This document shows, one piece after another, positions 1 to 37,126 of a DNA stretch of 64,000 nucleotides. Position 1 is the first letter of the stretch; each line of letters opens with the position of its first letter. The notes beneath the pieces are model-generated. The model was given only the letters and a program-made list of their open reading frames with translations. It did not search any database and was not told the origin of the DNA. The translations under genes and the position numbers were made by a program. Source of the stretch: Schmidtea polychroa (Eukaryota); contig CM097885.1 in NCBI GenBank assembly GCA_044892525.1, forward strand, positions 18,664,001 to 18,728,000, read 5' to 3'.

Positions 1-3000
1 TCTTCTCCAAAATCTTCATTTAATTCTTCCTCATCTTCTCCATCATTTTCTCCAACATTTTCTGAAACATTTTCTGCAACAATTTCTCCAACATTTTCTC
101 CAATATTTAATTCACTTAATCTTACATGCCCATATGCAAGACTAGTATTTTTCCCCACCCAAACCCTTTTGTCATCTTTGTTAGTTAGTGCTATTTTTGT
201 GTTTTTAATTGTAAAAATTTGATGATTTTTGCTTGTTATTTTAGTCTGAGGAACCGAAAAAATCTGGTTAGTGTTATAACAATCCAGGTATGACTGATGT
301 TTTATGTCACTACCTTTCAATGTTACACCTTTAGCCTTTTTTGTTTCCTCATCACTCAACAAGCTATAACATTTAGGTCTAAGAAAAACCCACTCCTTAT
401 ATTTAAGACCTTTATTCTCGTCTTTGAACTTTCCAATGACTGAATCAAGGTTCTTACTATATAAGGAATGACAACTATTGTAATTGGAAGTATCCAATAA
501 ATTATCTCGAACCATTGCAGGTAAAAGAACCTCAAGTTTGCAGTTAATGACTTCGAGGAAAAAAGAATCTGTATCACCTGCAACGATATTAATTTTACAA
601 TTAAACTCATTGCGAAATGATTCCAGATCCTTATATTGCAATTCATACATTCTAAGTTTAGATAGATCAAGTACAGATTGACCAATGTAACTCGGTCTAT
701 CTAAACATATAGAATCTGAATTCAATAGTGCTGCAATTAAATTATCTGCTATTTTAATAGATTTTTTAAAAGTTGGTTTTGACGAATATTTAACTAATTT
801 ACCGGCAGTTGTACAAAGACGAAGATTCATTCTTCTCTTTAAATTTTCAACTGTTTTGCCGTATAAACTATTATTTAGCAATTTATAATAATTTTTATCT
901 AAGCTATTTACGCTTTTTGATCTTAATTCAGTATTTGTATCTATATATTTTTTAAAAATTGGTGATTGCTTAAATCTTACACCCCTATTTACACGTGTTA
1001 CTTTAACACCAAGTTCCAAATATAATTTTAATAATCTCCAATGAATAACATAATTAGATTTTGGAAGATGAGTTAATAATAATTTTTCAACCTTAGACCC
1101 AGCAGGTTTCATTTTTTCAGCAGCTACAGGGAAATCATCCAACTTATCATGAAGCTCAGAAGGAATTACAAGATCAACTTCAAGTGTGTATCCATAAGAC
1201 AAAGATTCAAGATTTAAATTCCTACATTCATCCATTATTTTATCAAATCCATCAAGAACCCAACAAAATTCGCCACAAGGTAATGATTGACTTAAAGCCC
1301 AGCCATAAAGATTATTAATATCTATATATAGTAACTCGGTGTTCTCGTCGGTTTTTACGTAATGCTTATTCACAAAAGTAAGACCGCCTCTTATTCCACC
1401 CTCATAAAAGCTAAACATTTCGTTTTCAGTTATGAGTTCAATTGGTTCATTTAAAGACATTAATGCAGAAGACCAAGACATGCCTGGAATTCCGAAATAA
1501 TTCAATGGTTCCAATCTATTGTGAGCAATGGATTTCAACCGAAACTGATGAAAGAAATCAGCCAAAAGAAAACAATCAAGTTTTAGGTAGATCATCATAT
1601 AATCTAATAAAGTTACGCAATTAGTTTCTACCCAAATCTCCTGAGCTTTTTCATACTCAAGCTCAGTGACACCCTCCCAGATTGGTGGTAATTCATAAGT
1701 AGTTTGGAGAATATCTAAAGAAGTGGCGAAATTATAAGGGAAGATTCCTTTTTCACTTACTATGGTGCCAGAAAAAGCAGAATTAGTAAAAGGCAAAGAA
1801 TTCAAAGTTTTGACTGCTTTAGCCAAAGAATCATTGACAAATTGATACGAATCAATGAATCTTAGGCTAATTTTACCTAAATGAGCAATCAAAGATATAA
1901 ATTTTTCCGTAGTTATTGGGATGCACCCTAAATTCCAATTTTTAAATTTATTTAATCCATATTTAAGTATATGGTGCATATCGTATCCCTTCAAGTTGTG
2001 AAATACGATAGGCAAAATTTTATTTATTTTTCTATTTACGTTACATGTGCTACAAGCTGCACCCAAGTATTTCCCCGTAAAATGATCGTGATCTCTAACA
2101 GGATCCACGATAGATTTCAAACAAAGATAACAAACCGTTGAATTAATGAATTGTTGTTGCTCAATTTTCGTTAATTTAATCATTGGTTTCCTACCCATTT
2201 TATAATAAAAAGGAAGAACCTTATTTAATGCTATATCCTCTATAGCACTTAAAAAACTCTCGACGCAATCTAAACCTATGAACTGCTGATAAGATTTAGA
2301 TCCGTCAAAGTTATTTACTAGTAAAAGACCAGCAGATATTGGCATGTGTTGCTGAAAATGATCATTATCAGAAGGTAAAATAGCCTCAAAATCGGCATAA
2401 ACTACAAAAGGAGGAGTTACTGTTTTCGACCAGTCAGTAAACTGTAAGAATTTATTTTGAGGGAAAGTATAAAGAGTTGTTCCTAATTGATTACGTTTGC
2501 ATAATATTTCATGTTTTTCTAGTGCGTTTCTATTATTAAACCCATTCAAACACCGATGGCACCATAATGAACGTATGCGTGTAGGACAAGTAGTGTTGAT
2601 ACCACAATTCAATAACCTATTTAAATTGCTTATAGCAACGTAATGGAAATTGTTCCCTTTATTTAATAATAGTAAATTAATTACAGTTCCATTTAAAACT
2701 TTGGAACGATGTATAATGTCTAAATGTGGGTGTTTTAAAACGTAATTATCTATTAATTGTTTGTTATTGTCATAAGAAAAAACGTTAATTATTAAACCAG
2801 GATTTTTGGCCTCGAATTTTCTAATATCTTTTAATTTCATGGGTAAGTCCAATGGATTATATATTAACTCAGATAAATTATAACTGGATGTCCTATTTCT
2901 AGCATAACTACTAACCTCATCATATTTTAAAATAGCTAAAATGCTATATAAAAAACATGAATCATCGGTGTTTTTTATATTAATTAAACAATATTTATTT

Positions 3001-3710
3001 TTTAGATAAGTAGGTAGTTCAATGAAACTCCTACCACTTAATCTACTTAGCCTACTTATCTTTGTTATGGTGAAGTGAATTTCTGTTATTTTTTTTATGA
3101 TCCAGCTACTTCCTAACTCTGTGATATTACTTATTTTCTCGTTTAGTTCCCTAATGCCTTCGTCAAAAAATGAGGCAGTTAAAGGTTTTGCGTAATTCGA
3201 AATATTATTAACCTTTATTTCCCCATCTTTTTCAAATTCGATTGTTATTCCGAATTGAATTTTGACGGAGCCTAATTCGTTAATAATATCTCGTAATTTT
3301 ATAATTAATTGTTCAGGAAATATTATTTCCTTTATATTTAAGTCGCTAGTATTTAAACTTAATATTTGATGGGTACCCCTTAGATCTTTTTGTATTATGG
3401 GAACATTACCCCCTATTTGTATTATATTTAATCCATCCCAAGAATCAAGGGAAATATTATCTAATCCTACCTGGGATTCAACAACCAATCCATCATGGGA
3501 TTCGACAACCAATCCATCATTGGATTCCACAAAAGGCAATCCGACCTGGGATTCAAAAGAAGAAGTATCTAATTTAATTTTTTTATTTTTATTATTTTTT
3601 TCTATAGTTGAGGGTCTTTTAAAAACACTATCTTTTTTAAAATTAAACCTATCTAAATGATTTTTATGTTTATTATAAAAAACGCTATATGTTACGGGGT
3701 CACTAGTCAT
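1..3710 (-). CDS. Protein-primed family B DNA polymerase (Polinton pPolB), left copy, apparently intact; last ~14 codons lie outside the window
   Basis: Mirror image of 8165..11874. First in-frame ATG is at 3710 (AAG in the right copy) and the frame is open from ~3770. It has AAA where the right copy has TAA. Its absence from the ORF track is consistent with no in-frame stop before the window edge. Confidence 0.88.
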   Translation of the reverse strand, partial: MTSDPVTYSVFYNKHKNHLDRFNFKKDSVFKRPSTIEKNNKNKKIKLDTSSFESQVGLPFVESNDGLVVESHDGLVVESQVGLDNISLDSWDGLNIIQIGGNVPIIQKDLRGTHQILSLNTSDLNIKEIIFPEQLIIKLRDIINELGSVKIQFGITIEFEKDGEIKVNNISNYAKPLTASFFDEGIRELNEKISNITELGSSWIIKKITEIHFTITKISRLSRLSGRSFIELPTYLKNKYCLINIKNTDDSCFLYSILAILKYDEVSSYARNRTSSYNLSELIYNPLDLPMKLKDIRKFEAKNPGLIINVFSYDNNKQLIDNYVLKHPHLDIIHRSKVLNGTVINLLLLNKGNNFHYVAISNLNRLLNCGINTTCPTRIRSLWCHRCLNGFNNRNALEKHEILCKRNQLGTTLYTFPQNKFLQFTDWSKTVTPPFVVYADFEAILPSDNDHFQQHMPISAGLLLVNNFDGSKSYQQFIGLDCVESFLSAIEDIALNKVLPFYYKMGRKPMIKLTKIEQQQFINSTVCYLCLKSIVDPVRDHDHFTGKYLGAACSTCNVNRKINKILPIVFHNLKGYDMHHILKYGLNKFKNWNLGCIPITTEKFISLIAHLGKISLRFIDSYQFVNDSLAKAVKTLNSLPFTNSAFSGTIVSEKGIFPYNFATSLDILQTTYELPPIWEGVTELEYEKAQEIWVETNCVTLLDYMMIYLKLDCFLLADFFHQFRLKSIAHNRLEPLNYFGIPGMSWSSALMSLNEPIELITENEMFSFYEGGIRGGLTFVNKHYVKTDENTELLYIDINNLYGWALSQSLPCGEFCWVLDGFDKIMDECRNLNLESLSYGYTLEVDLVIPSELHDKLDDFPVAAEKMKPAGSKVEKLLLTHLPKSNYVIHWRLLKLYLELGVKVTRVNRGVRFKQSPIFKKYIDTNTELRSKSVNSLDKNYYKLLNNSLYGKTVENLKRRMNLRLCTTAGKLVKYSSKPTFKKSIKIADNLIAALLNSDSICLDRPSYIGQSVLDLSKLRMYELQYKDLESFRNEFNCKINIVAGDTDSFFLEVINCKLEVLLPAMVRDNLLDTSNYNSCHSLYSKNLDSVIGKFKDENKGLKYKEWVFLRPKCYSLLSDEETKKAKGVTLKGSDIKHQSYLDCYNTNQIFSVPQTKITSKNHQIFTIKNTKIALTNKDDKRVWVGKNTSLAYGHVRLSELNIGENVGEIVAENVSENVGENDGEDEEELNEDFGE

Positions 3711-3738
3711 ACATACGGGACATATAAAATAAGTTTTA

Positions 3739-4299
3739 TTATAATATTTTTTTTGTGTAATAATTCTCCATTATAGAATGGCAATTATTATCATGTTCTT
3801 TCGATGAACAATAATTTGGGTAAAGTATACCTATAAAATAAAAATTTAATAAAAAAATATAATTTAAATGAAATATTTTAGTAAATGTTTACGCAAAAAT
3901 TTGCAAATTATTATTATTTTACAAATTTTATTTACTAAAAAATAAAAATTTACTAAATTAAAAATATTAACATTTACTTAAATAAAAAATTATATTAAAT
4001 TTCCTTTAAATTATAAAAAGTAATCAATACTTACATTGTAAATTTTCATTTCGATTTATTGACACATTGACATAATTTTTTTCTTTATTCGTATTACCTA
4101 AATTATTAATTAATTAAATCAATAAATTTAAAATTATGTTTACTTTTTCTTTTCAAATTTCCTTTAATCTTAGATTTTAAATTGTCTTCATTAATATTAT
4201 CTAAATTAATTAATAAATTAATTAATAAATAAATTAAAATTTACCAAATTTCTGAATTTTTTCTCGGACATTCATAACGTTTTCTATTAAAGAATTCAT
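3739..4299 (-). CDS. Predicted 4-exon upstream ORF or 5' exons of pPolB (left-arm mirror of 7576..8136)
   Basis: Inverted copy of the exon/intron structure at 7576..8136 with the same GT-AG sites. Confidence 0.55.
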
Positions 4300-4889
4300 T
4301 TTTAAAGGTTAACTATTTGTTAAATGTGACTAATGATTGATTATTGTTTATAGATTATTATTGTTTATAGATTATTATTGTTCATAGGAACAAATTCTTA
4401 CCAATCAAAATCAAGGAAGGGTAGGAAAAAATTAATTTATTTTAAAACACATTTTGACGCTAAAGTTGACTTATTTAACATTTTCATAATAATTTAATAA
4501 AAATAATGTGATGAACCCACAAAGTAATATCATTTTTCATCAAATTGTAAAACAGTAATAACGTTTTCATAAAATTGTAACAAAGTAATAACATATTTCA
4601 GATAATTTTTCAACAGTTGTAAAATATTTAAGCAAATTGTAACAAGATTAGAAAATATTACAACAAAGTAGTAACATATTTCAGAAAATTTCAACAAAGT
4701 TGTAAAATATTTATCAAATTGTAACTAAAATAATAAAAATATTGCAACAAAGTAATAAAATAATAATGGTAATTAAGACAAATCAATACATTATTTCGAA
4801 GACGGACAACAAATTAAAAAGAATATTGTAACTAAAATAATAAAAATATTGCAACAAAGTAATAAAATAATACAACATTTTAAACTCTA

Positions 4890-5330
4890 GATCAATCCAT
4901 TTTATAGAAAATTAAATTTTATCTATATAATATATGAATAAATATCCAAGGAAATTACGTTAACGTATAATAAATACAAATTTATCGTAAAAACATGTGT
5001 GTATTACACACAAAACAAGATACATAATTTCTAATCAATCCATTTTATAGAAAATTAAATTTTATCTATATATTATATGAATAAAATCCTAAGAAAATTA
5101 CGTTAACTGTATGAAAAATACAAATTTATCATAAAAACATGTGTGTATTACACACAACATACGAGACATAATTTTTAATCAAGCTATTTTATAGAAAATT
5201 AAATTTTATCTATATAATATATGAATAAAAATCCAAGAAAATTACGTTAACCGCGCGAAAAACTACAAATTTATTGTAAAAACATGTGTGCATTACACAC
5301 AAAGCATCAAACTGAAATTGTAATTGCGCC
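4890..5330. repeat. ~143-bp tandem repeat x3 containing palindromes (mirrored at ~6545..6985)
   Basis: Units start near 4893, 5036 and 5179: TTTTATAGAAAATTAAATTTT...TTACGTTAAC...AAAAACATGTGTG(T/C)ATTACACAC. Confidence 0.85.
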
Positions 5331-5417
5331 ATGTTGTAGAGAATTAAATTCTGCCTATACATGGTTACACTTAAATCTCGATCAGACATGTGAAAAGAGA
5401 CATAAAAGATAAAAAAC

Positions 5418-6457
5418 AGTAGAGTAGTATGATGTGTCCCCGCCAGACCAGGTCCCCGCCAGACCACATATACCCCCTCCCCCCCCCCCCGGTCTGAAAA
5501 ATTTTATTTTTTTTTTTAGAACGATGCCTAATATTTTTAGAACTATTACGTAATCAATGCCTAATATTTTTAGAACGATGCCTAATATTTTTAGAACTAT
5601 TACGTAATTTTTTTTAAATTAATTGGTCCAGCGGTGACCTACTTTTTTTCTTCCCAAAAATAATGTTCCCGCCAACAAATTTTATTGAACGATACCTCAT
5701 CTTAAAGCTCAGTCCAAGACCTTTCGAATGAGCTATAGGTATCTTATATATCTTTAATAGTTTTAATGTTATTAACAATTGATGACCACCATCTTTTCAA
5801 CGTTAAATTATTATTATTATTCAAAATATTATTAATTGGTCCAGCGGTGACCTACTTTTTTTCATCCCAAAAATTATTGTTCCCGCCAACATATTATATT
5901 GATCGATAGCTTATTTTAAAGCTCTGTGCAAGAACTTTCTAATGAGATATAGATTTTTATCATACGATGACTCATCACATTTTTAGAACAAAGACAATGA
6001 CTCATCATATTTTTAGAACGATGCCTAATATTTTTAGAACGATGCCAAATACTTTTAGAACGATGCCTAATATTTTTAGAACGATGCCTAATATTTTTAG
6101 AACTATTACGTAATCGATGTCTAATATTTTTAGAACGATGCCAAATATTTTTAGAATGGTGCCTAATATTTTTAGAACGATTACGTCATACTTTTAGAAC
6201 GATGCCTAATATTTTTAGAACTATTACGTAATTTTTTTAAATTAATTGGTCCAGCGGTGACCTACTTTTTTTCTTCCCAAAAGTAATGTTTCCATCATCC
6301 GAATTTATTAATCAAACACTTATTTTAAAGCCCAGTGCAAAATCTATATACTGATATATAAATATTATTATTAACATTATTTTACACACGGGGGGGAGGG
6401 GGTATATGTGGCCGAGCGGGCTCCTGGCCGGGCGGGCCCACATCATACTACTCTACT
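5418..6457. mobile_element. 1.04-kb non-autonomous mini-element with Polinton-like termini at the palindrome axis
   Basis: Begins AGTAGAGTAGTATGATG...TACCCCCTCCCCCCC and ends GGGGGGGAGGGGGTA...CATCATACTACTCTACT. This is the same AGTAG...TACCCCCTCCCC layout as the element 2 terminus. Confidence 0.7.
5515..6300. repeat. 21-bp minisatellite (AGAACGATGCCTAATATTTTT) plus three copies of a ~60-bp unit (AATTGGTCCAGCGGTGACCTAC...)
   Basis: 21-mers at 5518-5610 and 6010-6230. Longer unit near 5621, 5834 and 6244. Confidence 0.85.
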
Positions 6458-7394
6458 GTTTTTTATCTTTTATGTCTCTTTTCACATGTCTGATCGAGAT
6501 TTAAGTGTAACCATGTATAGGCAGAATTTAATTCTCTACAACATGGCGCAATTACAATTTCAGTTTGATGCTTTGTGTGTAATGCACACATGTTTTTACA
6601 ATAAATTTGTAGTTTTTCGCGCGGTTAACGTAATTTTCTTGGATTTTTATTCATATATTATATAGATAAAATTTAATTTTCTATAAAATAGCTTGATTAA
6701 AAATTATGTCTCGTATGTTGTGTGTAATACACACATGTTTTTATGATAAATTTGTATTTTTCATACAGTTAACGTAATTTTCTTAGGATTTTATTCATAT
6801 AATATATAGATAAAATTTAATTTTCTATAAAATGGATTGATTAGAAATTATGTATCTTGTTTTGTGTGTAATACACACATGTTTTTACGATAAATTTGTA
6901 TTTATTATACGTTAACGTAATTTCCTTGGATATTTATTCATATATTATATAGATAAAATTTAATTTTCTATAAAATGGATTGATCTAGAGTTTAAAATGT
7001 TGTATTATTTTATTACTTTGTTGCAATATTTTTATTATTTTAGTTACAATATTCTTTTTAATTTGTTGTCCGTCTTCGAAATAATGTATTGATTTGTCTT
7101 AATTACCATTATTATTTTATTACTTTGTTGCAATATTTTTATTATTTTAGTTACAATTTGATAAATATTTTACAACTTTGTTGAAATTTTCTGAAATATG
7201 TTACTACTTTGTTGTAATATTTTCTAATCTTGTTACAATTTGCTTAAATATTTTACAACTGTTGAAAAATTATCTGAAATATGTTATTACTTTGTTACAA
7301 TTTTATGAAAACGTTATTACTGTTTTACAATTTGATGAAAAATGATATTACTTTGTGGGTTCATCACATTATTTTTATTAAATTATTATGAAAA

Positions 7395-7480
7395 TGTTAA
7401 ATAAGTCAACTTTAGCGTCAAAATGTGTTTTAAAATAAATTAATTTTTTCCTACCCTTCCTTGATTTTGATTGGTTAGAA
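7395..7480 (+). promoter_or_regulatory. Putative promoter block of the pPolB locus (GCGTCA CRE-like half-site, ATTGG/CCAAT box)
   Basis: Lies ~100-180 bp upstream of ATG 7576. The block is conserved in the element 2 spacer (32860-32970). Confidence 0.4.
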
Positions 7481-7575
7481 TTTGTTCCTATGAACAATAA
7501 TAATCTATAAACAATAATAATCTATAAACAATAATCAATCATTAGTCACATTTAACAAATAGTTAACCTTTAAAA

Positions 7576-8136
7576 ATGAATTCTTTAATAGAAAACGTTA
7601 TGAATGTCCGAGAAAAAATTCAGAAATTTGGTAAATTTTAATTTATTTATTAATTAATTTATTAATTAATTTAGATAATATTAATGAAGACAATTTAAAA
7701 TCTAAGATTAAAGGAAATTTGAAAAGAAAAAGTAAACATAATTTTAAATTTATTGATTTAATTAATTAATAATTTAGGTAATACGAATAAAGAAAAAAAT
7801 TATGTCAATGTGTCAATAAATCGAAATGAAAATTTACAATGTAAGTATTGATTACTTTTTATAATTTAAAGGAAATTTAATATAATTTTTTATTTAAGTA
7901 AATGTTAATATTTTTAATTTAGTAAATTTTTATTTTTTAGTAAATAAAATTTGTAAAATAATAATAATTTGCAAATTTTTGCGTAAACATTTACTAAAAT
8001 ATTTCATTTAAATTATATTTTTTTATTAAATTTTTATTTTATAGGTATACTTTACCCAAATTATTGTTCATCGAAAGAACATGATAATAATTGCCATTCT
8101 ATAATGGAGAATTATTACACAAAAAAAATATTATAA
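7576..8136 (+). CDS. Predicted spliced ORF (exons 7576-7630, 7675-7731, 7778-7840, 8045-8136; 88 aa) or 5' exons of pPolB
   Basis: Three phase-1 GT-AG introns (44, 46 and 204 bp; donors GTAAAT, GTAAAC, GTAAGT; acceptors TTTAG, TTTAG, ATAG) keep one open frame: MNSLIENVMNVREKIQKFDNINEDNLKSKIKGNLKRKSNTNKEKNYVNVSINRNENLQCILYPNYCSSKEHDNNCHSIMENYYTKKIL*. Confidence 0.6.
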
Positions 8137-8335
8137 TAAAACTTATTTTATATGTCCCGTATGTAAGACTAGTGACCCCGTAACATATAGCGTTTTTTAT
8201 AATAAACATAAAAATCATTTAGATAGGTTTAATTTTAAAAAAGATAGTGTTTTTAAAAGACCCTCAACTATAGAAAAAAATAATAAAAATTAAAAAATTA
8301 AATTAGATACTTCTTCTTTTGAATCCCAGGTCGGA

Positions 8336-11300
8336 TTGCCTTTTGTGGAATCCAATGATGGATTGGTTGTCGAATCCCATGATGGATTGGTTGTTGAATC
8401 CCAGGTAGGATTAGATAATATTTCCCTTGATTCTTGGGATGGATTAAATATAATACAAATAGGGGGTAATGTTCCCATAATACAAAAAGATCTAAGGGGT
8501 ACCCATCAAATATTAAGTTTAAATACTAGCGACTTAAATATAAAGGAAATAATATTTCCTGAACAATTAATTATAAAATTACGAGATATTATTAACGAAT
8601 TAGGCTCCGTCAAAATTCAATTCGGAATAACAATCGAATTTGAAAAAGATGGGGAAATAAAGGTTAATAATATTTCGAATTACGCAAAACCTTTAACTGC
8701 CTCATTTTTTGACGAAGGCATTAGGGAACTAAACGAGAAAATAAGTAATATCACAGAGTTAGGAAGTAGCTGGATCATAAAAAAAATAACAGAAATTCAC
8801 TTCACCATAACAAAGATAAGTAGGCTAAGTAGATTAAGTGGTAGGAGTTTCATTGAACTACCTACTTATCTAAAAAATAAATATTGTTTAATTAATATAA
8901 AAAACACCGATGATTCATGTTTTTTATATAGCATTTTAGCTATTTTAAAATATGATGAGGTTAGTAGTTATGCTAGAAATAGGACATCCAGTTATAATTT
9001 ATCTGAGTTAATATATAATCCATTGGACTTACCCATGAAATTAAAAGATATTAGAAAATTCGAGGCCAAAAATCCTGGTTTAATAATTAACGTTTTTTCT
9101 TATGACAATAACAAACAATTAATAGATAATTACGTTTTAAAACACCCACATTTAGACATTATACATCGTTCCAAAGTTTTAAATGGAACTGTAATTAATT
9201 TACTATTATTAAATAAAGGGAACAATTTCCATTACGTTGCTATAAGCAATTTAAATAGGTTATTGAATTGTGGTATCAACACTACTTGTCCTACACGCAT
9301 ACGTTCATTATGGTGCCATCGGTGTTTGAATGGGTTTAATAATAGAAACGCACTAGAAAAACATGAAATATTATGCAAACGTAATCAATTAGGAACAACT
9401 CTTTATACTTTCCCTCAAAATAAATTCTTACAGTTTACTGACTGGTCGAAAACAGTAACTCCTCCTTTTGTAGTTTATGCCGATTTTGAGGCTATTTTAC
9501 CTTCTGATAATGATCATTTTCAGCGACACATGCCAATATCTGCTGGTCTTTTACTAGTAAATAACTTTGACGGATCTAAATCTTATCAGCAGTTCATAGG
9601 TTTAGATTGCGTCGAGAGTTTTTTAAGTGCTATAGAGGATATAGCATTAAATAAGGTTCTTCCTTTTTATTATAAAATGGGTAGGAAACCAATGATTAAA
9701 TTAACGAAAATTGAGCAACAACAATTCATTAATTCAACGGTTTGTTATCTTTGTTTGAAATCTATCGTGGATCCTGTTAGAGATCACGATCATTTTACGG
9801 GGAAATACTTTGGTGCAGCTTGTAGCACATGTAACGTAAATAGAAAAATAAATAAAATTTTGCCTATCGTATTTCACAACTTGAAGGGATACGATATGCA
9901 CCATATACTTAAATATGGATTAAATAAATTTAAAAATTGGAATTTAGGGTGCATCCCAATAACTACGGAAAAATTTATATCTTTGATTGCTCATTTAGGT
10001 AAAATTAGCCTAAGATTCATTGATTCGTATCAATTTGTCAATGATTCTTTGGCTAAAGCAGTCAAAACTTTGAATTCTTTGCCTTTTACTAATTCTGCTT
10101 TTTCTGGCACCATAGTAAGTGAAAAAGGAATCTTCCCTTATAATTTCGCCACTTCTTTAGATATTCTCCAAACTACTTATGAATTACCACCAATCTGGGA
10201 GGGTGTCACTGAGCTTGAGTATGAAAAAGCTCAGGAGATTTGGGTAGAAACTAATTGCGTAACTTTATTAGATTATATGATGATCTACCTAAAACTTGAT
10301 TGTTTTCTTTTGGCTGATTTCTTTCATCAGTTTCGGTTGAAATCCATTGCTCACAATAGATTGGAACCATTGAATTATTTCGAAATTCCAGGCATGTCTT
10401 GGTCTTCTGCATTAATGTCTTTAAATGAACCAATTGAACTCATAACTGAAAACGAAATGTTTAGCTTTTATGAGGGTGGAATAAGAGGCGGTCTTACTTT
10501 TGTGAATAAGCATTACGTAAAAACCGACGAGAACACCGAGTTACTATATATAGATATTAATAATCTTTATGGCTGGGCTTTAAGTCAATCATTACCTTGT
10601 GGCGAATTTTGTTGGGTTCTTGATGGATTTGATAAAATAATGGATGAATGTAGGAATTTAAATCTTGAATCTTTGTCTTATGGATACACACTTGAAGTTG
10701 ATCTTGTAATTCCTTCTGAGCTTCATGATAAGTTGGATGATTTCCCTGTAGCTGCTGAAAAAATGAAACCTGCTGGGTCTAAGGTTGAAAAATTATTATT
10801 AACTCATCTTCCAAAATCTAATTATGTTATTCATTGGAGATTATTAAAATTATATTTGGAACTTGGTGTTAAAGTAACACGTGTAAATAGGGGTGTAAGA
10901 TTTAAGCAATCACCAATTTTTAAAAAATATATAGATACAAATACTGAATTAAGATCAAAAAGCGTAAATAGCTTAGATAAAAATTATTATAAATTGCTAA
11001 ATAATAGTTTATACGGCAAAACAGTTGAAAATTTAAAGAGAAGAATGAATCTTCGTCTTTGTACAACTGCCGGTAAATTAGTTAAATATTCGTCAAAACC
11101 AACTTTTAAAAAATCTATTAAAATAGCAGATAATTTAATTGCAGCACTATTGAATTCAGATTCTATATGTTTAGATAGACCGAGTTACATTGGTCAATCT
11201 GTACTTGATCTATCTAAACTTAGAATGTATGAATTGCAATATAAGGATCTGGAATCATTTCGCAGTGAGTTTAATTGTAAAATTAATATCGTTGCAGGTG

Positions 11301-11917
11301 ATACAGATTCTTTTTTCCTCGAAGTCATTAACTGCAAACTTGAGGTTCTTTTACCTGCAATGGTTCGAGATAATTTATTGGATACTTCCAATTACAATAG
11401 TTGTCATTCCTTATATAGTAAGAACCTTGATTCAGTCATTGGAAAGTTCAAAGACGAGAATAAAGGTCTTAAATATAAGGAGTGGGTTTTTCTTAGACCT
11501 AAATGTTATAGCTTGTTGAGTGATGAGGAAACAAAAAAGGCTAAAGGTGTAACATTGAAAGGTAGTGACATAAAACATCAGTCATACCTGGATTGTTATA
11601 ACACTAACCAGATTTTTTCGGTTCCTCAGACTAAAATAACAAGCAAAAATCATCAAATTTTTACAATTAAAAACACAAAAATAGCACTAACTAACAAAGA
11701 TGACAAAAGGGTTTGGGTGGGGAAAAATACTAGTCTTGCATATGGGCATGTAAGATTAAGTGAATTAAATATTGGAGAAAATGTTGGAGAAATTGTTGCA
11801 GAAAATGTTTCAGAAAATGTTGGAGAAAATGATGGAGAAGATGAGGAAGAATTAAATGAAGATTTTGGAGAAGATGACATCGATATCGATGACGTTATTT
11901 TGTCCGATGAGGACTAA
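8336..11917 (+). CDS. Protein-primed family B DNA polymerase (Polinton pPolB), right copy; 5' part cut off by in-frame TAA at 8291-8293
   Basis: Exonuclease motifs YADFE, HNLKGYD, FIDS, KGIFPY and YLKLD. Polymerase motifs RGG, DINNLYG, KLLNNSLYGK, GDTDS, KCY and KAKG. Endonuclease VII-like Zn insert CYLC..DHDHFTG..GAACSTCN. N-terminal INIKNTDDSCFLYS...FHY segment typical of Polinton pPolBs. AATAAA at 11926. Confidence 0.95.
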   Translation: MPFVESNDGLVVESHDGLVVESQVGLDNISLDSWDGLNIIQIGGNVPIIQKDLRGTHQILSLNTSDLNIKEIIFPEQLIIKLRDIINELGSVKIQFGITIEFEKDGEIKVNNISNYAKPLTASFFDEGIRELNEKISNITELGSSWIIKKITEIHFTITKISRLSRLSGRSFIELPTYLKNKYCLINIKNTDDSCFLYSILAILKYDEVSSYARNRTSSYNLSELIYNPLDLPMKLKDIRKFEAKNPGLIINVFSYDNNKQLIDNYVLKHPHLDIIHRSKVLNGTVINLLLLNKGNNFHYVAISNLNRLLNCGINTTCPTRIRSLWCHRCLNGFNNRNALEKHEILCKRNQLGTTLYTFPQNKFLQFTDWSKTVTPPFVVYADFEAILPSDNDHFQRHMPISAGLLLVNNFDGSKSYQQFIGLDCVESFLSAIEDIALNKVLPFYYKMGRKPMIKLTKIEQQQFINSTVCYLCLKSIVDPVRDHDHFTGKYFGAACSTCNVNRKINKILPIVFHNLKGYDMHHILKYGLNKFKNWNLGCIPITTEKFISLIAHLGKISLRFIDSYQFVNDSLAKAVKTLNSLPFTNSAFSGTIVSEKGIFPYNFATSLDILQTTYELPPIWEGVTELEYEKAQEIWVETNCVTLLDYMMIYLKLDCFLLADFFHQFRLKSIAHNRLEPLNYFEIPGMSWSSALMSLNEPIELITENEMFSFYEGGIRGGLTFVNKHYVKTDENTELLYIDINNLYGWALSQSLPCGEFCWVLDGFDKIMDECRNLNLESLSYGYTLEVDLVIPSELHDKLDDFPVAAEKMKPAGSKVEKLLLTHLPKSNYVIHWRLLKLYLELGVKVTRVNRGVRFKQSPIFKKYIDTNTELRSKSVNSLDKNYYKLLNNSLYGKTVENLKRRMNLRLCTTAGKLVKYSSKPTFKKSIKIADNLIAALLNSDSICLDRPSYIGQSVLDLSKLRMYELQYKDLESFRSEFNCKINIVAGDTDSFFLEVINCKLEVLLPAMVRDNLLDTSNYNSCHSLYSKNLDSVIGKFKDENKGLKYKEWVFLRPKCYSLLSDEETKKAKGVTLKGSDIKHQSYLDCYNTNQIFSVPQTKITSKNHQIFTIKNTKIALTNKDDKRVWVGKNTSLAYGHVRLSELNIGENVGEIVAENVSENVGENDGEDEEELNEDFGEDDIDIDDVILSDED

Positions 11918-12104
11918 TTTTATTGAATAAATTTTATATCTTTACATTTGTTATTTGGTAAATTTTTATGTTTGTTATGTGTCTAGTTCATTTTTATGTG
12001 TTTAGTTAATGTTTATATGTTTTGTTATGTGTCTAGTTATTTTTATGTGTTTAGTTAATTTTTTATGTGTTGTATAGTATTTGGTTGATATATTATTAAT
12101 ATTA

Positions 12105-12163
<59 letters not shown>

Positions 12164-12399
12164 TCATAAAAATTTTCATTAAAAATTATCTTAAAAATTA
12201 TTCTATTAAAATTTCCATTAAAAATTACCATTGAAAATTATTCATAAAAATTTCTATTAAAAATTACTTAAAAAATAATTCATTAAAATTTCCATTAAAA
12301 AATTTCAATTCTCAAACACCTTCTATTTTTGTTAATAAATTTAAAAATCTTACTTTAATTTACTTATTACATTACTTTAATTTACTTATTTAAAAATTA

Positions 12400-12625
12400 T
12401 TACTTTAATTTTAAAATTTTTGACCTTAATTAACTTTAATTTAATTTTTAGAACCATAATTTACTTTAATTTTAAAATTTTTGACCATTATTTACTGTAA
12501 TTTAATTTTTAGAACCATTATTTACTGTAATTTAAAATATTTGGACCATTATTTACTTTAATTTAATTTTTTAGAACCATTATTTACTTTAATTTAAAAA
12601 TTTGGATCATAATTTACTTTATTTT
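12400..12625. repeat. ~30-bp subterminal tandem repeat (GACCATTATTTACTGTAATTTAA...), same family as the element 2 arrays
   Basis: Direct sequence match to 39170-40630. Confidence 0.85.
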
Positions 12626-13064
12626 AAAAATTTACTATGCGTTTTTTAATGTAAACCACCTTTTCTATTGAAATTCTCATGACCAAGAAGATCCCCTCAC
12701 TATAGTGTGAAAAATCCATGCTTTTTTATTGAAGACTACCTTTTTCTATTGAAATTCTCAGGACCAAGGAGACCCACCCAAATAATATTTATCCTTGGCT
12801 TGTTTATTGAAAAAAAAAAAAAAAAAAAAAAAAAATTTGTATTTAAAATCCCAGAAAACATTGGGCATTACGGCAACAATTATGTAATCAAAAAATGTCT
12901 ACGGAAAAAGTTATGCAATCAAAAGTTTGCAACATTTTTTACCCCCCCCCTATTGCTGCCGTAAGCCACTAACTACCTCCTATGATAATATTTTTTTAAT
13001 TTCATTTTGTGAATTTTTTAATTAAATAAACATATTTATAGTAATAATCAAGCAACATTTACAC

Positions 13065-13391
13065 CATAGCTATTCAATTAGATTTTGTCATGGGCCAAAC
13101 TAGATAAATCTGAAGATGCTGGCATGCCAGAAGCTCGGAGGAGGGGTTTGGAGAGGTGGACGATGAGAACATTCAAAAAATGTTTTAAAATGATAAAGGT
13201 GAAAGGTGCATTTTGGAAGCTTTTAATAATGAATTAAAAATTTACAATGTAAATTATGGAATTTAATCAATGTGAAAATGATGGGAAAATGAAATATATA
13301 TATATATATTATAGATTTAAGAAATCCTTAAAATTTTGACATAGTTCAACGAGCCAAATTGGTCCCGCAGGCCGCCAATTGAATAATACTG
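13065..13391. mobile_element. hAT-type MITE
   Basis: Imperfect TIRs CATAGCTATTCAATT / AATTGAATAATACTG. 8-bp TSD ATTTACAC/ATTTACAT. Subterminal GGTCCCGCAGGCCGC. Confidence 0.65.
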
Positions 13392-14775: not shown

Positions 14776-15559
14776 CATTTTTTTATTTTAAACATCTTTT
14801 ATAAGTGTGGTCAATAATATAAATGGACTTGATTAAAAGAAAAGTTACAAATTTATAATTCATCTTTTTATAAAAAATATATTTTAAATATAATAATAAT
14901 AATTTTTTTGTTTTATAGTATTGTTCGGTTATTCTTAAGTTATTAAAAGTTTGAGATTAGTTTTCATGGATTACATGTAATATTGAAATAACTTTATGTA
15001 ATCATGACCCTCAAAATCTCGAATATGATATGAAGGGGTTTAAGGCTTATGTTCATATATCGTCCTTTTTACTTTTTACTAATTTGTTGGAAGATACATT
15101 TAAAAATAATATGAATGGCATGCAATAAACTAAATAAATTATTATAAAATTATTATAAAAAAATAATATTTTACTTAATTTATGTCAACGAAAATAAATA
15201 ATTATTTATTAAAATAAAAAATTCGAAAAAATAATTTTAATATTCAACTTCCGTGTAAAATAGCAATAAATTTTTGACATAAAATATTCACAATGAATGA
15301 ATGGATTGTCTCATTGACTATCAAAAAAGAGAAGATTAAAAAACATAAATTATATCATTTAAAATAATTTTAACCAATCAAACAATTGAAAAGAATAATG
15401 TTAACATTAATCTCCTTGGTAATATTGAAAGAGGTACATTTATTTAGATTTTTTTGTTTTAATCCAATTGGTTACATGTAATCCAATACAAACAAAACAA
15501 TCTTTCAGATATTTCCCCTCAAATATTTGAATCATATTTTTTTTAATTTTACTCCTCCG

Positions 15560-16801
15560 ATGTTGTTCTATGAGTTTTCTAATTCTTGTTCGGAAAATCT
15601 CACGAACGCAACCGTCGACGAAATGGTGTTGCGCTTTAAAACTCAAGAATGGTACTTGATGTTGGCAATTCTTCCTGTCAGTGTTTTGGCATTTTTAGCC
15701 AATTCAATTTCTTTGATAATCTTTTCAAAACAATATTTTGACAATAGTGCAGTTAAATTTAATTTGGTATCAATTTCCGTTTCGGAAATCGTTTTGCAAT
15801 TAGTTGTTGTTTCGGAGGTCATCATAGTGTTAGGAGGTGTGGAGGATGTATGGAAATGGAAAGAAATGCTGACTACCTCTGTAATCCATATGTCTCTAAA
15901 TGCTATGTTTTCAATTCGTAATTGGAATGTCGTCCTTATATCTGTTGCAAGGTGTGAAGTGGTAATTAGTCCACTTTCCTTGCGAGGCAGACTTATATTT
16001 AATAAAATTGTCCTAAGAATTCTAACAACATTAATTATTGTAATATCTGTTGTCCTTGCCTGTTTAAATATTCTAAAAGATAAAGGAATTATTTGTGTAA
16101 ATTTAGATTGGTTCGTCACAATAGTTGGATTTCTGAATCAATTTGAAGCTTATAGTTATTTTGATATTTACGGGATCTTTATGTTCCAATCATGTTTGCC
16201 TGTAATTTTCATTTGTATTTCAACTTTCATAATTGGTTTCAAACTGAGAGAAACTCCAATGAAAAATAAGCTTCTCTCTAAGGGTCCATTTCTATACAAA
16301 GACAACGGAAAGGTTTCCAAACAAAAGATTCCTAAATCCTCGAAATTCTACAACAGAGGAATTTTCAAACCAAAATTCCAACCTCTTCAACCCAATGTAT
16401 CAGCAATTACCGATGAGAACCGTAAAGGAAAGCTAATATCTTCCATTTCTTTAATCAAAAACCGTATTCGGACAAGTTATTTGGTTTTGTTCTTGTCATT
16501 GATGTTTTGTTTGCTGCAAATCCCCACATTCATCATTACTTGTGTCCTCAGATTTCATCCAAATCTTGATTTTGAAATCCACCCAGATGTATTTTCCAAC
16601 AGTTTATTGGTAATAGATTCCTTTTTGAATTTTTTTGTTTATGCCGCCAGCAGCAAGAAATTTCGGTATTCAGTTCTGAGACTCTTTGAAAGATTTTGGT
16701 CGAATTCAAAATCTGATACAATTAAACGACAATATCTCAATTCAACTGTGCTGGAGAAGTGTAACAGAGCGGATGAAAATTCAAATATTTCCCCTGAATG
16801 A
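15560..16801 (+). CDS. Intronless class A (rhodopsin-like) GPCR, peptide-receptor-like orphan
   Basis: Seven hydrophobic segments, N-terminal N-glycosylation sites, TM1 AN, TM3 ARC (DRY variant), TM6 FCLLQIP, TM7 NFFVY and helix 8 FR. First ATG is at 15560 (the ORF track starts at TTG 15527). Confidence 0.88.
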   Translation: MLFYEFSNSCSENLTNATVDEMVLRFKTQEWYLMLAILPVSVLAFLANSISLIIFSKQYFDNSAVKFNLVSISVSEIVLQLVVVSEVIIVLGGVEDVWKWKEMLTTSVIHMSLNAMFSIRNWNVVLISVARCEVVISPLSLRGRLIFNKIVLRILTTLIIVISVVLACLNILKDKGIICVNLDWFVTIVGFLNQFEAYSYFDIYGIFMFQSCLPVIFICISTFIIGFKLRETPMKNKLLSKGPFLYKDNGKVSKQKIPKSSKFYNRGIFKPKFQPLQPNVSAITDENRKGKLISSISLIKNRIRTSYLVLFLSLMFCLLQIPTFIITCVLRFHPNLDFEIHPDVFSNSLLVIDSFLNFFVYAASSKKFRYSVLRLFERFWSNSKSDTIKRQYLNSTVLEKCNRADENSNISPE

Positions 16802-27751: not shown

Positions 27752-27859
27752 AGTAGGTAGATAGTGGCCCACTGCAACAATTACCCCCCTCCCCCCCCTA
27801 GAAAAAAAATTTTTGCAACTCGCATTTTTTGTTGCAACTTTTTATTACGCAATTGTTCC

Positions 27860-28210
27860 ACACTATAGTGAGGGGGTCTCGATGGTCCTGGGATTTTCAA
27901 TACAAAAAAATTTTTTCAATACAAAAATCCGATTATCACTAAAAAAGCATGGAATTTTCAGACTATAGTGAGGGGGGGGGGGGGGGGGGGTCTCGATGGT
28001 CCTGGGATTTTCAATACAAATAAAATTTTTTCAATACAAAAATCCGACTACCACTAAAAAAGCCAAGAATTTATCAGACTATAGTGAGGGGGTCTCGATG
28101 GTCCTGGGATTTTCAATACAAATAAAATTTTTTCAATACAAAAATCCGACTACCACTAAAAAAGCCAAGGATTTATCAGACTATAGTGAGGGGGTCTCCT
28201 TGGTCCTGAG
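27860..28210. repeat. ~110-bp subterminal repeats (ACTATAGTGAGGGGGTCTCGATGGTCCTGGGATTTTCAATAC); inverted counterpart at 40690-40990
   Basis: Units visible by eye. Related sequence at 12660-12780. Confidence 0.85.
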
Positions 28211-28249
28211 AAAAAGGTGGTCTACACTAAAAAACGTGGTAAATTTTTT

Positions 28250-28800
28250 CAATTAAAGTAAATAATGGTTCTAAAAAATTAAATTACAGTAAATAATGGT
28301 CCAAAATTTTCAATTACAGTAAATAATGGTCTAAAATTTTCAATTAAGTAAATAATGGTCCTAAAAATTGAATTACTGTAAATTATGGTCCTAAAAAATT
28401 AAATTACAGTAAATTATGGTCCTAAAAAATTAAATTACAGTAAATTATGGTCCAGATTTTTCAATTACAGTAAATTATGGTCCAAATTTTTCAAATACAG
28501 TAAATTATGGTCCAAATTTTTCAATTACAGTAAATAATGGTTCTAAAAAATTAAATTACAGTTAATTATAGTCCTAAAAATTGAATTACAGTAAATTATG
28601 GGTCTAAAAATTGAATTAAAGTAAATTATGGTCCAAATTTTTCAATTACAGTAAATTATGGTTCAAAAAATTGAATTACAGTAAATTATGGTCCAAATTT
28701 TTGAATTAAAGTAAATTTTGGTTCTAATAAATTAAATTAAAGTAAATTATGGTTCTAAAAAAATTAAATTAAAGTTAATTAAGGTCCAAATTTTAAAATT
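28250..28800. repeat. ~30-bp tandem array, left arm of element 2
   Basis: AATTACAGTAAATTATGGTCCAAATTTTTC-type units. Confidence 0.9.
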
Positions 28801-29054
28801 AAGTAATCAATGGTAAAAAATTTTAAATAAGTAAATTAAAGTAAATTAAAGTAAGATTTTTAAATTTATTAACGAAAAGTTGAAATAATAGGTGTTTGAG
28901 AATTGAAATTTTTTAATGAAAATTTTTATGAAATAATTTTTTAAGAAATTTTTAATGAAATATTTTTCAATGGTAATTTTAGATGGAAATTTTTAAGATA
29001 ATTTTTAATGAAAATTTTTATGAAATATTTTTCAAAGACAAATTTTAATAATAA

Positions 29055-29750
29055 TTCAACAACAAACCAACAACCAGTAACTTACGAACATGTATTAACA
29101 ACCAGAGACCTACAACCAGTTACCTGATACCAAGTACCAACAACCAAAAACATGCAACCAACTAGGTACCAAGTACTAACAACTAGCTACCACCTACCCA
29201 TTAACTAGCTACTAAGTACTAACAACCAACAACAACCAGGTACTAAGCATTATTAACCACCTACTAAGTACCGACAATCAGTAACTTACGAACATGTATT
29301 ACCAACCAGATACCTACAACTAGTTACTAACAACCAGTTACCTGATACCAAGTACTAACAACCCACAACAATTAGCTAACAACTAACTACCACCTACCAA
29401 GTACCTACAACCAATAACAACCAACTACTAAGTACTAACAACCAAAAACAATCAACTAGGTACTAGATACCAAGTACTTACAACAAACATCAACCAAGTA
29501 CCTACAACAACCTACCAAGTACTTACAACCAACATCAACCAGATACCTACAACTAGACACCAACAACCAGTTACCACCTACCCAATCACTAGCTACAACC
29601 AGCTAACAACTAACTACCAAGTACATACAACCAACAACAACCAAGTACTAAGCATTATCAACCAAGTACTAACAACCAAGTACAAGATACCTAGTACTAA
29701 CAACCCGCTAACAACTATATACCAAGCACTTACAACCAGATGACCACATG
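29055..29750. repeat. Strand-biased ACAACC/TACTAAC mosaic repeat; inverted, expanded counterpart at 37580-38870
   Basis: Shuffled short motifs (ACAACC, AGTACTAAC, TACCTAC). Confidence 0.85.
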
Positions 29751-32469
29751 AAATTATTGGTTAAATATGAAAATAATGGTTATAATTAGTTGTTAAGTAA
29801 ATTATGGTGTAAAATTAAGAAATAAAGAATAATTAGGAAAATTAGGATATATTAAGGAAAATTAAGGTTCAAAATTTAAAATTAAGTAACCAATGGTTCA
29901 AATTTTAAATTAAAGCTAAATGAGTAAATTAAAGTAATAATTTTTAAATAAGTAATGTAATAAGTAAATTAAACTAAGATTTTTAAATTTATTATCAAAA
30001 GATTGAATAACCACCAACTTTTTTGAGAAATGTAATTTTTAATGAAAATTTAAATGGAAATTTTTTTTTAAGTTAATTTTAAACGTCATATTTTTTAAAT
30101 AGAAATTTTTAAGTTAATTTTTTAAGTTATTTTCAATGAAATATTTTTCAAAGTCAAATGAAAATTTTAATGGAATAATAATAATAATAATAATAAAAAT
30201 AATCATAATAATAATAATAATAATTCAACAGTTCCCAACAATCGGATACTAAATATTTTTAACTAGGTGCTAACAAATAAGTACAAAAATACTTACAACA
30301 TGATACCACGTACTAACTAACTCTCAAACAACCACATACTTACAACTAACTACTTACACTCAACTAAAATTAATATTTTTTATACAGCTTCTATAATAAT
30401 TTTAATTACAATCAGTAGAAAAACCTTTTCAAATGTAACAAAAATGTTGATTTTCATCAAAAAACCACAACTCAATCACTTTAAAACACCAAGTGAAATT
30501 CAAAATAATTTAAATTAGAATGAAAGACTAATGAATTCTAATTTACAAAACATTCTTCTTTTAAATGATAACTACTGACTTATTATTGCAAAGTAAAAAT
30601 CACATTCAATAAATACTTATTGTTGATCAGTTTTATTATATATACTCTGAGTTTATCCGACAGGATGTTTTGACCCTCTAAGGGTACTGGTCGTAAGGGT
30701 ATTAGTCGTAGGGGTACTGGTTGTAAGGATATTGCTAACACTCAACCCCCACCTACCCATTAACTAGTTACTAAGTACTAACAACCAGCTAGCAACTAAA
30801 TACTAAACACTAACAACCACCATCAACCAGATACTAAACATTATCAACCTACAACTATATAACAACAATCAGTAAACAACACTGTACCAACTACCAAATA
30901 CAAGATACCAACAACTTAGTACCAACAATCAACTAACAACACATAAAAATAATAGCAATTAAATACAAAATATTCTTCATCGCATACACTATTTTCTTAT
31001 CAAAATCTAAAAAGTCAACCAACTACTAACAACCAACAACTATGTACTAACAAATAGATCTTTAAAAGCAAATACTCATCACTTGAAAAATTAGATGGAA
31101 AATTATTTGAACTCAAGGCATCAATAACTAGGTAAAAATTGATTAAATTATTGTAAAAAATTTAAATTATTCAAAATAAATATCATAAAAATTTAAATTA
31201 TTCAAAATAAATATCATAAAAATTTAATTAATGGACAAGAAAAAATTCTAATCATTAATCATCAAGTAAATAAAAAAAAATACTGATCATTCAAGTTGAA
31301 TCAACTAAGATAATAAATTAATAAAATTTGAAACAAAATCTAGTAGATAATTGATTTAGATTGAATAAATTAATTGAAATAAATTAATTTTAATTATTTA
31401 TTTTTAAAGTAATACATGTACTCAAATTGATTGACTGATTTCTCAATATATTCAAAAAATCAGTATAAATTCATTACAATTATCAAAGTCATCAATCTAC
31501 AATAAAAATAATTATCATTAAATTCCAAAAGAGACTAGATAGCTAATGATAACATCTAACAAACCAGTAAATTCATTTAAATGACAACAATTGGTATATT
31601 CAAGTGAATTCTCCAATAAAATCATCTAAAAAGAATCATTCCCCCCCTAAATATATCAATATTTAAAGAATTGTATTTTAATGATAGGTACTTGTTAAAG
31701 ATCATATATTCACCTCAAACTAATAAGATTCCTTAAAATCCCTTAAATGACTATATTTCAACCCTTAATTCATATTATTAAAAATATCATCTAAAAAGCA
31801 TCAAATTTCCTTGAAATAACTCTATCCTTAAAGATTGATATTTTAATGATAAGTACCCGTAAAAGATCATATACTCCCCTCAGACTAATAAGATTGCTTA
31901 AAATCCCCTTTAAATGACTATAATTCTAACTTTAATTCCTATTATCATACATATTTCGCTATTGATAAAACCAGTTATAATTAAATTATTTGTTAATCAC
32001 TGTACTCGATATTTTAAATAAATATTACTGTACAATATAACTGACTAGGTCCTATTGAAAGATTAAATTTATCCATTCAATAAAATATATTTCTTCAAAT
32101 GATCATTTTTACCAATATTCAACCGATTTAATTACTAATTAAAATCAATCGATAGATTTCTTTCAATAAAGATCAATTTTATTTAGTCAATGTTTTAAGT
32201 CCATATTTCTCAACTTTTGTCGTTGTCCGTCTAAATAAAGATAAAAATAATTTAAAGTTGATATCAATCCCAATTATCTGTACGGATTTCATTGTCAAAA
32301 CCAAGTAAATCGATCATTATCCCTACTTAATAAAACATTGTTCTAAATTAATTTACTGTGCATTAATCACAACCTAATAAAACGATATAATTTCACATTA
32401 TTATTGATACATAACTGACTAATGTATTGCAATTTCCTTAAAAACATTGATATTTTACCAACATCACCC

Positions 32470-32710
32470 TTAAAAAATCATATATTCCCATCTTAACCCA
32501 TCTCTCATTAAATTTAACCGACTATATCTCCCTTACAATGATATATTCCCATCTTAACCGATCTTTCATTACATTTAACCGACTATATCCCCTTAAAAGA
32601 TCATATTTTCCCCATCTTATCCGATCTCTCATTAAATCTAACCAACAATATCCCATCTTAACCGATCTCTCACCAAATATTTCTACCCCTTTAAACATCT
32701 AACCGAATAT
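32470..32710. repeat. CCCATCTTAACCGA..CTCATTAAATCTAACCGACTATAT repeats; inverted counterpart at 34400-34765
   Basis: Several imperfect tandem units near the inner end of each arm. Confidence 0.8.

Positions 32711-37044: not shown

Positions 37045-37126
<82 letters not shown>

Follow-up and report, generated by a model that had tools for sequence, protein, structure and literature searches.

We examined a 64,000-nucleotide stretch of the Schmidtea polychroa genome (contig CM097885.1; G000:C1:18664001-18728000 in an AT-rich assembly of 781 Mb), referred to here as the window, whose left edge falls inside a giant palindrome that carries two copies of a polymerase gene. We call this palindrome E1 and delimited it on the window joined to 10 kb of sequence fetched upstream (locus L031). 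Positions are those of the window, negative upstream of it, and an E1 coordinate is the window position + 1172. E1 belongs to a high-copy family of Maverick/Polinton descent, of which it represents a single inserted copy.

E1 is 14,153 bp long, from window position -1171 to 12981, and sits inside a 271.6-Mb contig, away from the contig ends. Its right end, at 12981, reads ...GCCACTAACTACCTCCT and its left end, at -1171, reads AGTAGGTAGTTAGTGGC, with one mismatch between the two, so that the termini take the form 5'-AGTAGG...CCTCCT-3'. The hexanucleotide ATGATA is duplicated at the two flanks (-1177 to -1172 and 12982..12987), the right copy directly after the last base of the element. The original prediction, made from the window alone, had called for a mirrored end starting AGGAGG about position -1106, preceded by ATGATA; the end lies at -1171, differs from the predicted sequence at one position, and is directly preceded by that duplication. 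The Polinton-type ends and 6-bp target-site duplication (TSD) that had been proposed are thus in place, and E1 shares with Polintons/Mavericks the combination of 5'-AG...CT-3' terminal inverted repeats (TIRs) with a 6-bp TSD. Public sequence over the region comes from four runs of short contigs, up to a few hundred bases long. A contig of one of them, X1, which is possibly the assembly's own source, bridges the right junction (12950-13257) with zero differences. A contig of run X5, from a different study, aligns to 12982-13159, beginning at the first base past E1, with its 106 preceding letters unaligned; this would fit an empty allele, and hence a polymorphic E1 insertion.

Within the window, an inverted repeat joins 1-5485 with 6390-11874 across a spacer of 904 nt. 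The in-window arms differ at 16 of 5,485 positions, of which 7 are scattered and 9 are clustered in a 27-nt GC-rich motif. With the upstream sequence included, the full arms align over 6,656 columns at 98.5% identity, and the shortfall consists of indels within subterminal tandem repeats. Each arm measures ~6.65 kb (left arm, -1171 to 5485, with 1..5485 inside the window; right arm, complete at 6390..12981), and together they account for 94% of E1 (13.2 of 14.15 kb), in agreement with the initial description of the element as nearly all inverted repeat.

The unique, non-palindromic centre (5486..6389, 904 bp) contains three direct ~200-bp repeats and 21-bp tandem repeats, and is homologous to the centres of two other family members, elements F (92.7%) and J (88%). 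The GC-rich motif (5437..5463) lies at the inner boundary of the left arm and has short inverted repeat flanks. It differs from its mirror at 6412-6438 at 9 positions and is the sole strongly asymmetric spot in the arms. One side of this boundary motif (~28 nt) is variable in element F as well, and the other side is identical in E1, F and J. The inner non-coding zone of the left arm (3711..5436), with 144-bp tandem repeats (4886-5303) and repeats of 17 to 83 bp, is presumably the promoter/leader region of the polymerase gene. Towards the right terminus, a subterminal zone (11918..12640) is made up of 18/49-bp, (TAT)24, 13/39-bp and 30/31-bp tandem repeats (the last at 12372-12634). The terminal ~340 bp (12641..12981), which end in the 17-mer 12965-12981, form the core common to the two classes of the family described below; we infer that this core is the putative carrier of integrase and replication-origin signals.

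Each arm has one gene directed outward, towards its terminus. The left-arm gene (3..3710, minus strand; last ~13 codons upstream of the window) is open for 1,270 codons, and the right-arm open frame (8294..11917, plus strand) for 1,207 codons, of which 8336-11917 encode the protein analysed here, P0001. This is the two-gene layout that had been noted, on arms whose true length of ~6.65 kb takes them past the window edge. The gene is a DNA polymerase of family B that uses a protein primer (pPolB), resembling that of phi29. P0001 alone gave only a weak Pfam match, to PF02945 (endonuclease-VII), and searches of PDB sequences with the single protein and with a profile found no polymerase. Its homologues, up to 64% identical, carry PF03175 and PF02945: among 30 aligned homologues (35-64% identity), PF03175 was detected in 20 (best E 1.1e-32) and PF02945 in all 30. 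No variation occurs across the alignment at the residues that we assign to motifs Exo I/II and Pol A/B/C. An AlphaFold2 model of the polymerase (pLDDT 83) has phi29 DNA polymerase as its best 9 PDB matches (E 1e-19 to 6e-17, TM 0.62-0.69).

The N-terminal part of the polymerase contains Cys195 and His299, both invariant in 30/30 homologues, within motifs that look OTU-like by eye; no Pfam OTU match was obtained for P0001 or the aligned homologues. The 'Alpha' class of adintovirus/Polinton PolB combines an OTU domain with pfam03175 (PMC8502044), and the two invariant residues fit, as far as sequence goes, the OTU-like domain of that class. A conserved endonuclease-VII/HNH-like insert likewise has Cys/His residues that are invariant in 30/30 homologues.

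The replicase is the sole gene detected in E1, as had been proposed. None of 12 family elements that we studied in full contains an open reading frame (ORF) of at least 120 aa other than pPolB, and within window positions 3711-8335 all 21 of the 21 other frames of at least 45 aa lack a Pfam match at E ≤ 0.01. We also compared the 12 elements by tblastn with the ORFs of two regions holding full Polintons, among them an rve-chromo integrase, a Pox_A32-type ATPase and a TBP-like gene. Only the pPolB ORFs of these regions gave matches, and the integrase (L052:6359-7519) gave none. A virion module (capsid, ATPase, protease) was undetected in the 12 elements, the capsid and protease queries being unannotated ORFs and not curated profiles. 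Rfam returned nothing at gathering score over the whole window and, at E ≤ 1, one chance-level match each in E1 and in a second element of the window, E2. E1 therefore has a detectable pPolB only and departs from an autonomous Polinton in three of its defining features: integrase, virion module and the length of the TIRs.

A search of the genome for further copies, which the original prediction had suggested, revealed the same layout at many loci. A 24-mer from the polymerase gene has 592 forward and 619 reverse matches, or 1,211 in total (control 0 and 0). The first 100 of these places comprise 30 outward-facing pairs, 5.4-10.2 kb apart (~60% of the places), and 40 single copies. Searching with P0001 yielded 39 scored matches from 21,704 candidates, all 99-100% identical and all in open frames of at least 1,207 aa; by eye, most of the 39 pair as (-,+) at a spacing of 3.3-5.2 kb, on contigs C1, C2, C3, C4 and C882. 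For the terminal 17-mer, shuffling of the window gave an expectation of 0; in the genome, with at most 2 mismatches allowed, it has 1718 forward and 1715 reverse matches (control 11 and 14). The 27 pairs of E1-type termini on C1 below 83 Mb span 8.7-22.3 kb (median 14.6 kb), and 0/27 pairs are shorter than 8.7 kb. The 22.3-kb pair was considered as a possible full helper element and rejected: 2 kb of its interior is non-coding, and its size is explained by a nested element of the canonical Polinton family described below.

Twelve of the ~1,700 elements (10 fetched by their paired termini and the 2 in the window) were studied in full. All 12 have 6-bp TSDs at their flanks (with a single mismatch in one case), and the family as a whole consists of palindromes of about 13-16 kb with ends of the form 5'-AGTAGG...CCTACT-3' and 6-bp target duplications. 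Two classes can be distinguished. In the polymerase class (E1, F, J, A and B), giant arms carry two polymerase genes; element G is a 9.4-kb derivative with one. The gene-less class (C, D, E, H, I and E2; 6/12) has no ORF of at least 120 aa and no similarity to the polymerase, and all six members have long inverted arms, 98-99% identical in C, D, E and H and less so in I and E2. What the two classes share is confined to the terminal ~340 bp and the subterminal 30-bp repeats. In elements A and B, the centre between the polymerase arms resembles that of the gene-less class. E2 lies within the window (27752-41094), with ends AGTAGGTAGATAGTGGC, a TIR of 225 nt at 94% and TSD CACCTA. It has 30-bp subterminal arrays, inner inverted-repeat blocks at only about 82-97% identity, a change of sign in GC skew near 34000, and no ORF of at least 120 aa, and we read it as an old gene-less palindromic member of the family.

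Outside this genome, viral contigs yielded 2 distant polymerase-related loci. Of 80 metagenome loci, 20 of at least 6 kb were inspected, and 0/20 had a second polymerase copy or an inverted repeat of at least 100 nt, in short-read assemblies, which would break such palindromes.

The arms of individual elements evolve in concert. Over a polymerase segment of ~3.6-3.9 kb, the two arms of one element diverge by 0.00-0.15% (5/5 elements), as against 0.67-3.55% between elements. Concerted evolution follows from the distribution of lineage-specific substitutions, each of which is present in both arms of its element. The differences between elements are mostly synonymous, which indicates that the polymerase is under selection: the ratio of non-synonymous to synonymous changes per site (pN/pS), obtained by a simple counting method on six sequences, is 0.09-0.43 in 15/15 pairs. 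Between A and F, for example, we counted 77.5 synonymous changes (706 sites) and 39.5 non-synonymous ones (2,801 sites). The one centre shared by E1, F and J implies a single palindromic ancestor, and since the pairs within this group have pN/pS of 0.09-0.24, selection must have persisted beyond the formation of the palindrome. In older copies the arms have come to differ (93% identity in I and about 82-87% in E2), so chromosomal copies are not homogenised indefinitely. This speaks for homogenisation of the arms while the element is actively being copied, more than for a permanent conversion in the chromosome.

A canonical Polinton family is present in the same genome. Its members, ~15.5 kb long (15.2-15.9 kb) and bounded by TIRs of about 0.7 kb (85%), encode one polymerase, an integrase, an ATPase, a TBP-like gene and other ORFs. 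In the N-terminal half, the canonical polymerase shares ~54% identity with P0001. At least 87 matches cover the full length of the integrase (94-100% identity). For the terminus AGTAGGGTATTGTGTGGACCCGGG there are 705 forward and 713 reverse occurrences (control 0 and 0). The first 100 places of this terminus form 34 pairs, 11 of them 15.2-15.9 kb apart and 12 corresponding to miniatures of 269-675 bp, and 8/11 integrase matches on C1 lie 4.7-6.0 kb from a canonical terminus. The miniatures suggest that the canonical integrase can act in trans. They resemble miniature inverted-repeat transposable elements (e.g. G000:C1 83985-84300), and none was seen among the 27 E1-type pairs.

Several regions retrieved in the course of the search for helpers bear on this family in other ways. 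Locus L056 is the left end of a canonical element. Loci L052-L054, which came from a search with the Pox_A32 family, were rejected as helper loci because they belong to other Polinton families and lack the 17-mer, and L050-L051 were set aside as a mosaic of nested fragments. In L052, a canonical Polinton, a TBP-like gene (L052:8735-9223; PF00352, E 5e-15) stands head-to-head with the Pox_A32-type ATPase (L052:8017-8655). In L050, the N-terminal part of a canonical polymerase is continued in frame by a fragment of an E1-like polymerase (L050:12490-13419; 84-88% identity with the N-terminal 280 residues); here the two families have either recombined or been joined by nesting.

We interpret these observations, with moderate confidence, as the traces of a putative long-lived satellite of full Mavericks, one that replicates itself and depends on them for integration and probably for capsids. 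The maintenance of the polymerase under purifying selection across hundreds of copies argues that the polymerase drives copying. A linear E1-type molecule would be copied by its own polymerase, primed at the terminal repeats. The displaced single strand could then fold back on itself to give a ~6.6-kb hairpin whose loop is the ~0.9-kb centre, and heteroduplex repair or fold-back copying at this hairpin stage would keep the arms identical. Finally, an rve-type Maverick integrase supplied in trans would insert the double-stranded product; this would account for the 6-bp duplications and for the conservation of the ends. That integration depends on a helper, as the original prediction had already suggested, is the most economical inference from E1, in which no integrase was detected. 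The family itself probably goes back to a full element whose polymerase end was duplicated by fold-back ('snap-back'), and from then on formed a separate lineage.

A number of observations weigh against the satellite reading. The right-arm gene of E1 has an in-frame stop (8291-8293), private to that arm, which removes an N-terminal zinc-finger leader that is still open in the left arm, and the in-frame start codon of element A is missing from both arms of E1. Among the first 100 places of the polymerase 24-mer, the 40 single copies have been seen in context just for element G and one nested case. The gene-less class is equally palindromic, so that the palindromic form does not go hand in hand with carrying the polymerase. 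The identity of the arms could also be explained by arm-to-arm gene conversion in the chromosome, and could be slightly overstated by assembly polishing; the simplicity of the counting method counts here too. A further objection concerns the helper. Among the loci examined we found no integrase-bearing element with the same 17-mer ends, and the 10 integrase matches on C1 below 83 Mb are all more than 20 kb from any listed E1-type terminus (by eye) and more than 38 kb from any listed E1-type polymerase 24-mer. The canonical and E1-type termini have only AGTAGG in common, plus, by eye, 7/10 of the next bases with one indel; since the match is confined to AGTAGG, the canonical family is a candidate helper and nothing more. 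The original prediction had suggested a search for integrase- or capsid-bearing elements with E1 termini and had raised the possibility that E1 is a dedicated replicase segment, as in a multipartite system. The sampled elements do not bear this out: the others with the same ends are gene-less (6/12 sampled), and no carriers of integrase or capsid genes are among them.

A more specific form of the satellite reading, which we put forward only tentatively and think rather unlikely, is that the palindromes are Maverick satellite genomes under a size constraint. A half-genome that retained just its replication end, with the polymerase or without it, would regain a near-full length by inverted duplication and have two origins, and the product could be packaged in helper capsids. 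Such a constraint would explain why both classes are mostly 12-17 kb long (27 pairs, median 14.6 kb), close to the 15.2-15.9 kb of full elements, and why there are no miniatures (0/27 pairs under 8.7 kb, against 12/34 in the canonical family). It would also explain the re-homogenisation of the arms in each cycle, by way of the single-strand hairpin.

The strongest competing explanation is that E1 and its relatives are passive chromosomal palindromes, moved entirely in trans by other Polintons, with arms kept alike by gene conversion, in the manner of sex-chromosome palindromes, and a polymerase that is irrelevant to their spread. Closely spaced long inverted repeats are known substrates of gene conversion. 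In addition, gene-less palindromes with the same ends are about as common as the others (6/12 sampled), and F and J carry identical frame disruptions in both arms. This explanation does not account for the purifying selection on the polymerase, which extends to the E1/F/J clade, or for the open frames of at least 1,207 aa in all 39 best matches despite an AT-rich genome; nor has conversion been lasting, to judge from the 7-18% divergence between the arms of older copies. We regard this passive reading as improbable.

A fully autonomous element, in which the OTU-like part of the polymerase or its endonuclease-VII/HNH-like insert also performs integration with no helper, would be in keeping with the invariance of the insert's Cys/His residues in 30/30 homologues and with our failure to find a helper with identical ends. 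The same insert, however, is present in the polymerases of canonical integrase-bearing Polintons (PF02945 in 30/30), and a 6-bp TSD with AG...CT or AGT-type ends is a known signature of Maverick rve integrases (PMC8097293). We consider autonomy very unlikely.

Still less credible is the view, entertained in the original prediction, that E1 is a one-off snap-back or defective genome: a single accident, inserted once, and a dead end. The layout is the expected product of fold-back copying of one genome end, and the right-arm gene of E1 does carry a stop. Yet the same layout stands at many loci with different TSDs, and is standard in a family of hundreds of inserted copies; its sub-lineages are up to 3.5% apart with pN/pS of 0.1-0.4, and E1, F and J share one centre but have diverged under selection. 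A fold-back accident is a likely origin of the family, but not of the E1 copy itself.

Finally, we give almost no credence to an artefact of assembly or amplification (a fold-back chimeric read or a chimera of multiple displacement amplification, as the original prediction had cautioned, or a missed adapter): very high arm identity and public data limited over the region to contigs of up to a few hundred bases would suit it, but the layout recurs across loci with precise ends and 6-bp TSDs in E1 and 11 other elements, the conserved non-palindromic 0.9-kb centre is unexpected from an adapter-type artefact, and E1 lies inside a 271.6-Mb contig with its right junction bridged by the X1 contig without difference.

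Elsewhere in the window, an ORF at 60313-60984 contains a DDE_3 transposase domain (PF13358, E 2.3e-17) and probably marks a Tc1/mariner-type element unrelated to E1. ORFs of 424, 171 and 222 aa at 15527-16801 and 44506-45741 match no Pfam family at the curated threshold, and their single weak match is to RmuC (E 7e-5).

To our knowledge, no experiment has yet shown that Polintons/Mavericks are synthesised by their own polymerase. The E1 family separates replication from integration within one natural system and suggests the existence of replicase-only satellites of Mavericks, and the strict concerted evolution of its 6.6-kb arms points to a single-strand hairpin intermediate. It may therefore offer a simple system for testing how virus-like transposons copy themselves. 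If the reading as size-constrained satellites is true, the family would be a natural minimal replicon and would provide the first sequence-level evidence that Mavericks of animals are replicated outside the chromosome by protein priming and can be parasitised by replicase-only satellites. By our arithmetic, ~1,700 long palindromes amount to roughly 3% of the genome. They are potential sources of instability and a challenge for assembly and repeat annotation.

We found no description of palindromic polymerase-only Polinton derivatives in the literature, with Repbase, subscription journals and supplements outside the search. Among known systems, the linear pPolB plasmids of fungal and plant mitochondria and of yeast cytoplasm resemble E1 in pairing terminal inverted repeats with an N-terminally extended pPolB. 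Unlike E1, they are extrachromosomal, have short TIRs, usually encode an RNA polymerase too, and do not insert with a 6-bp TSD. In shape, the E1 family resembles Foldback (FB-type) transposons, which have very long inverted arms with tandem sub-repeats and a central loop, and many copies of which are non-coding, as is the gene-less class here. Foldback transposons have other ends and another TSD length, belong to a different transposase superfamily and carry no polymerase.

A similar geometry is that of the snap-back defective genomes of protein-primed linear viruses and of dimerised undersized adenovirus vectors, in which one end is inverted and duplicated to give two functional origins. The total length of these molecules is near that of the parent; they are helper-dependent and arise sporadically within infections. 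The E1 family fits this geometry but differs in being an inherited, inserted lineage of hundreds of copies with a conserved asymmetric centre and a selected polymerase.

With Polintons/Mavericks of the adintovirus type (Alpha PolB), E1 shares a pPolB with an N-terminal extension, the 6-bp TSD, a length of ~14 kb and subterminal tandem repeats, and its 5'-AG...CT-3' ends resemble the (AGT)2//(ACT)2 motif of vertebrate Mavericks. It differs from them in that integrase, ATPase, protease and capsid are undetected, in that the polymerase gene is present twice, and in the length of its arms: at ~6,650 bp these are outside the range of 46-1,447 bp given for the TIRs of intact vertebrate Mavericks (PMC8097293). 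A further comparison is with the canonical family of the same genome, which is set apart from the E1 type by its single polymerase, its integrase, ATPase and TBP-like genes, its miniatures of 0.27-0.68 kb, and TIRs of ~0.7 kb as against inverted repeats of 6.65 kb each in E1. The two nevertheless have in common the first 6 terminal nucleotides, the architecture of the subterminal repeats and a similar overall length.

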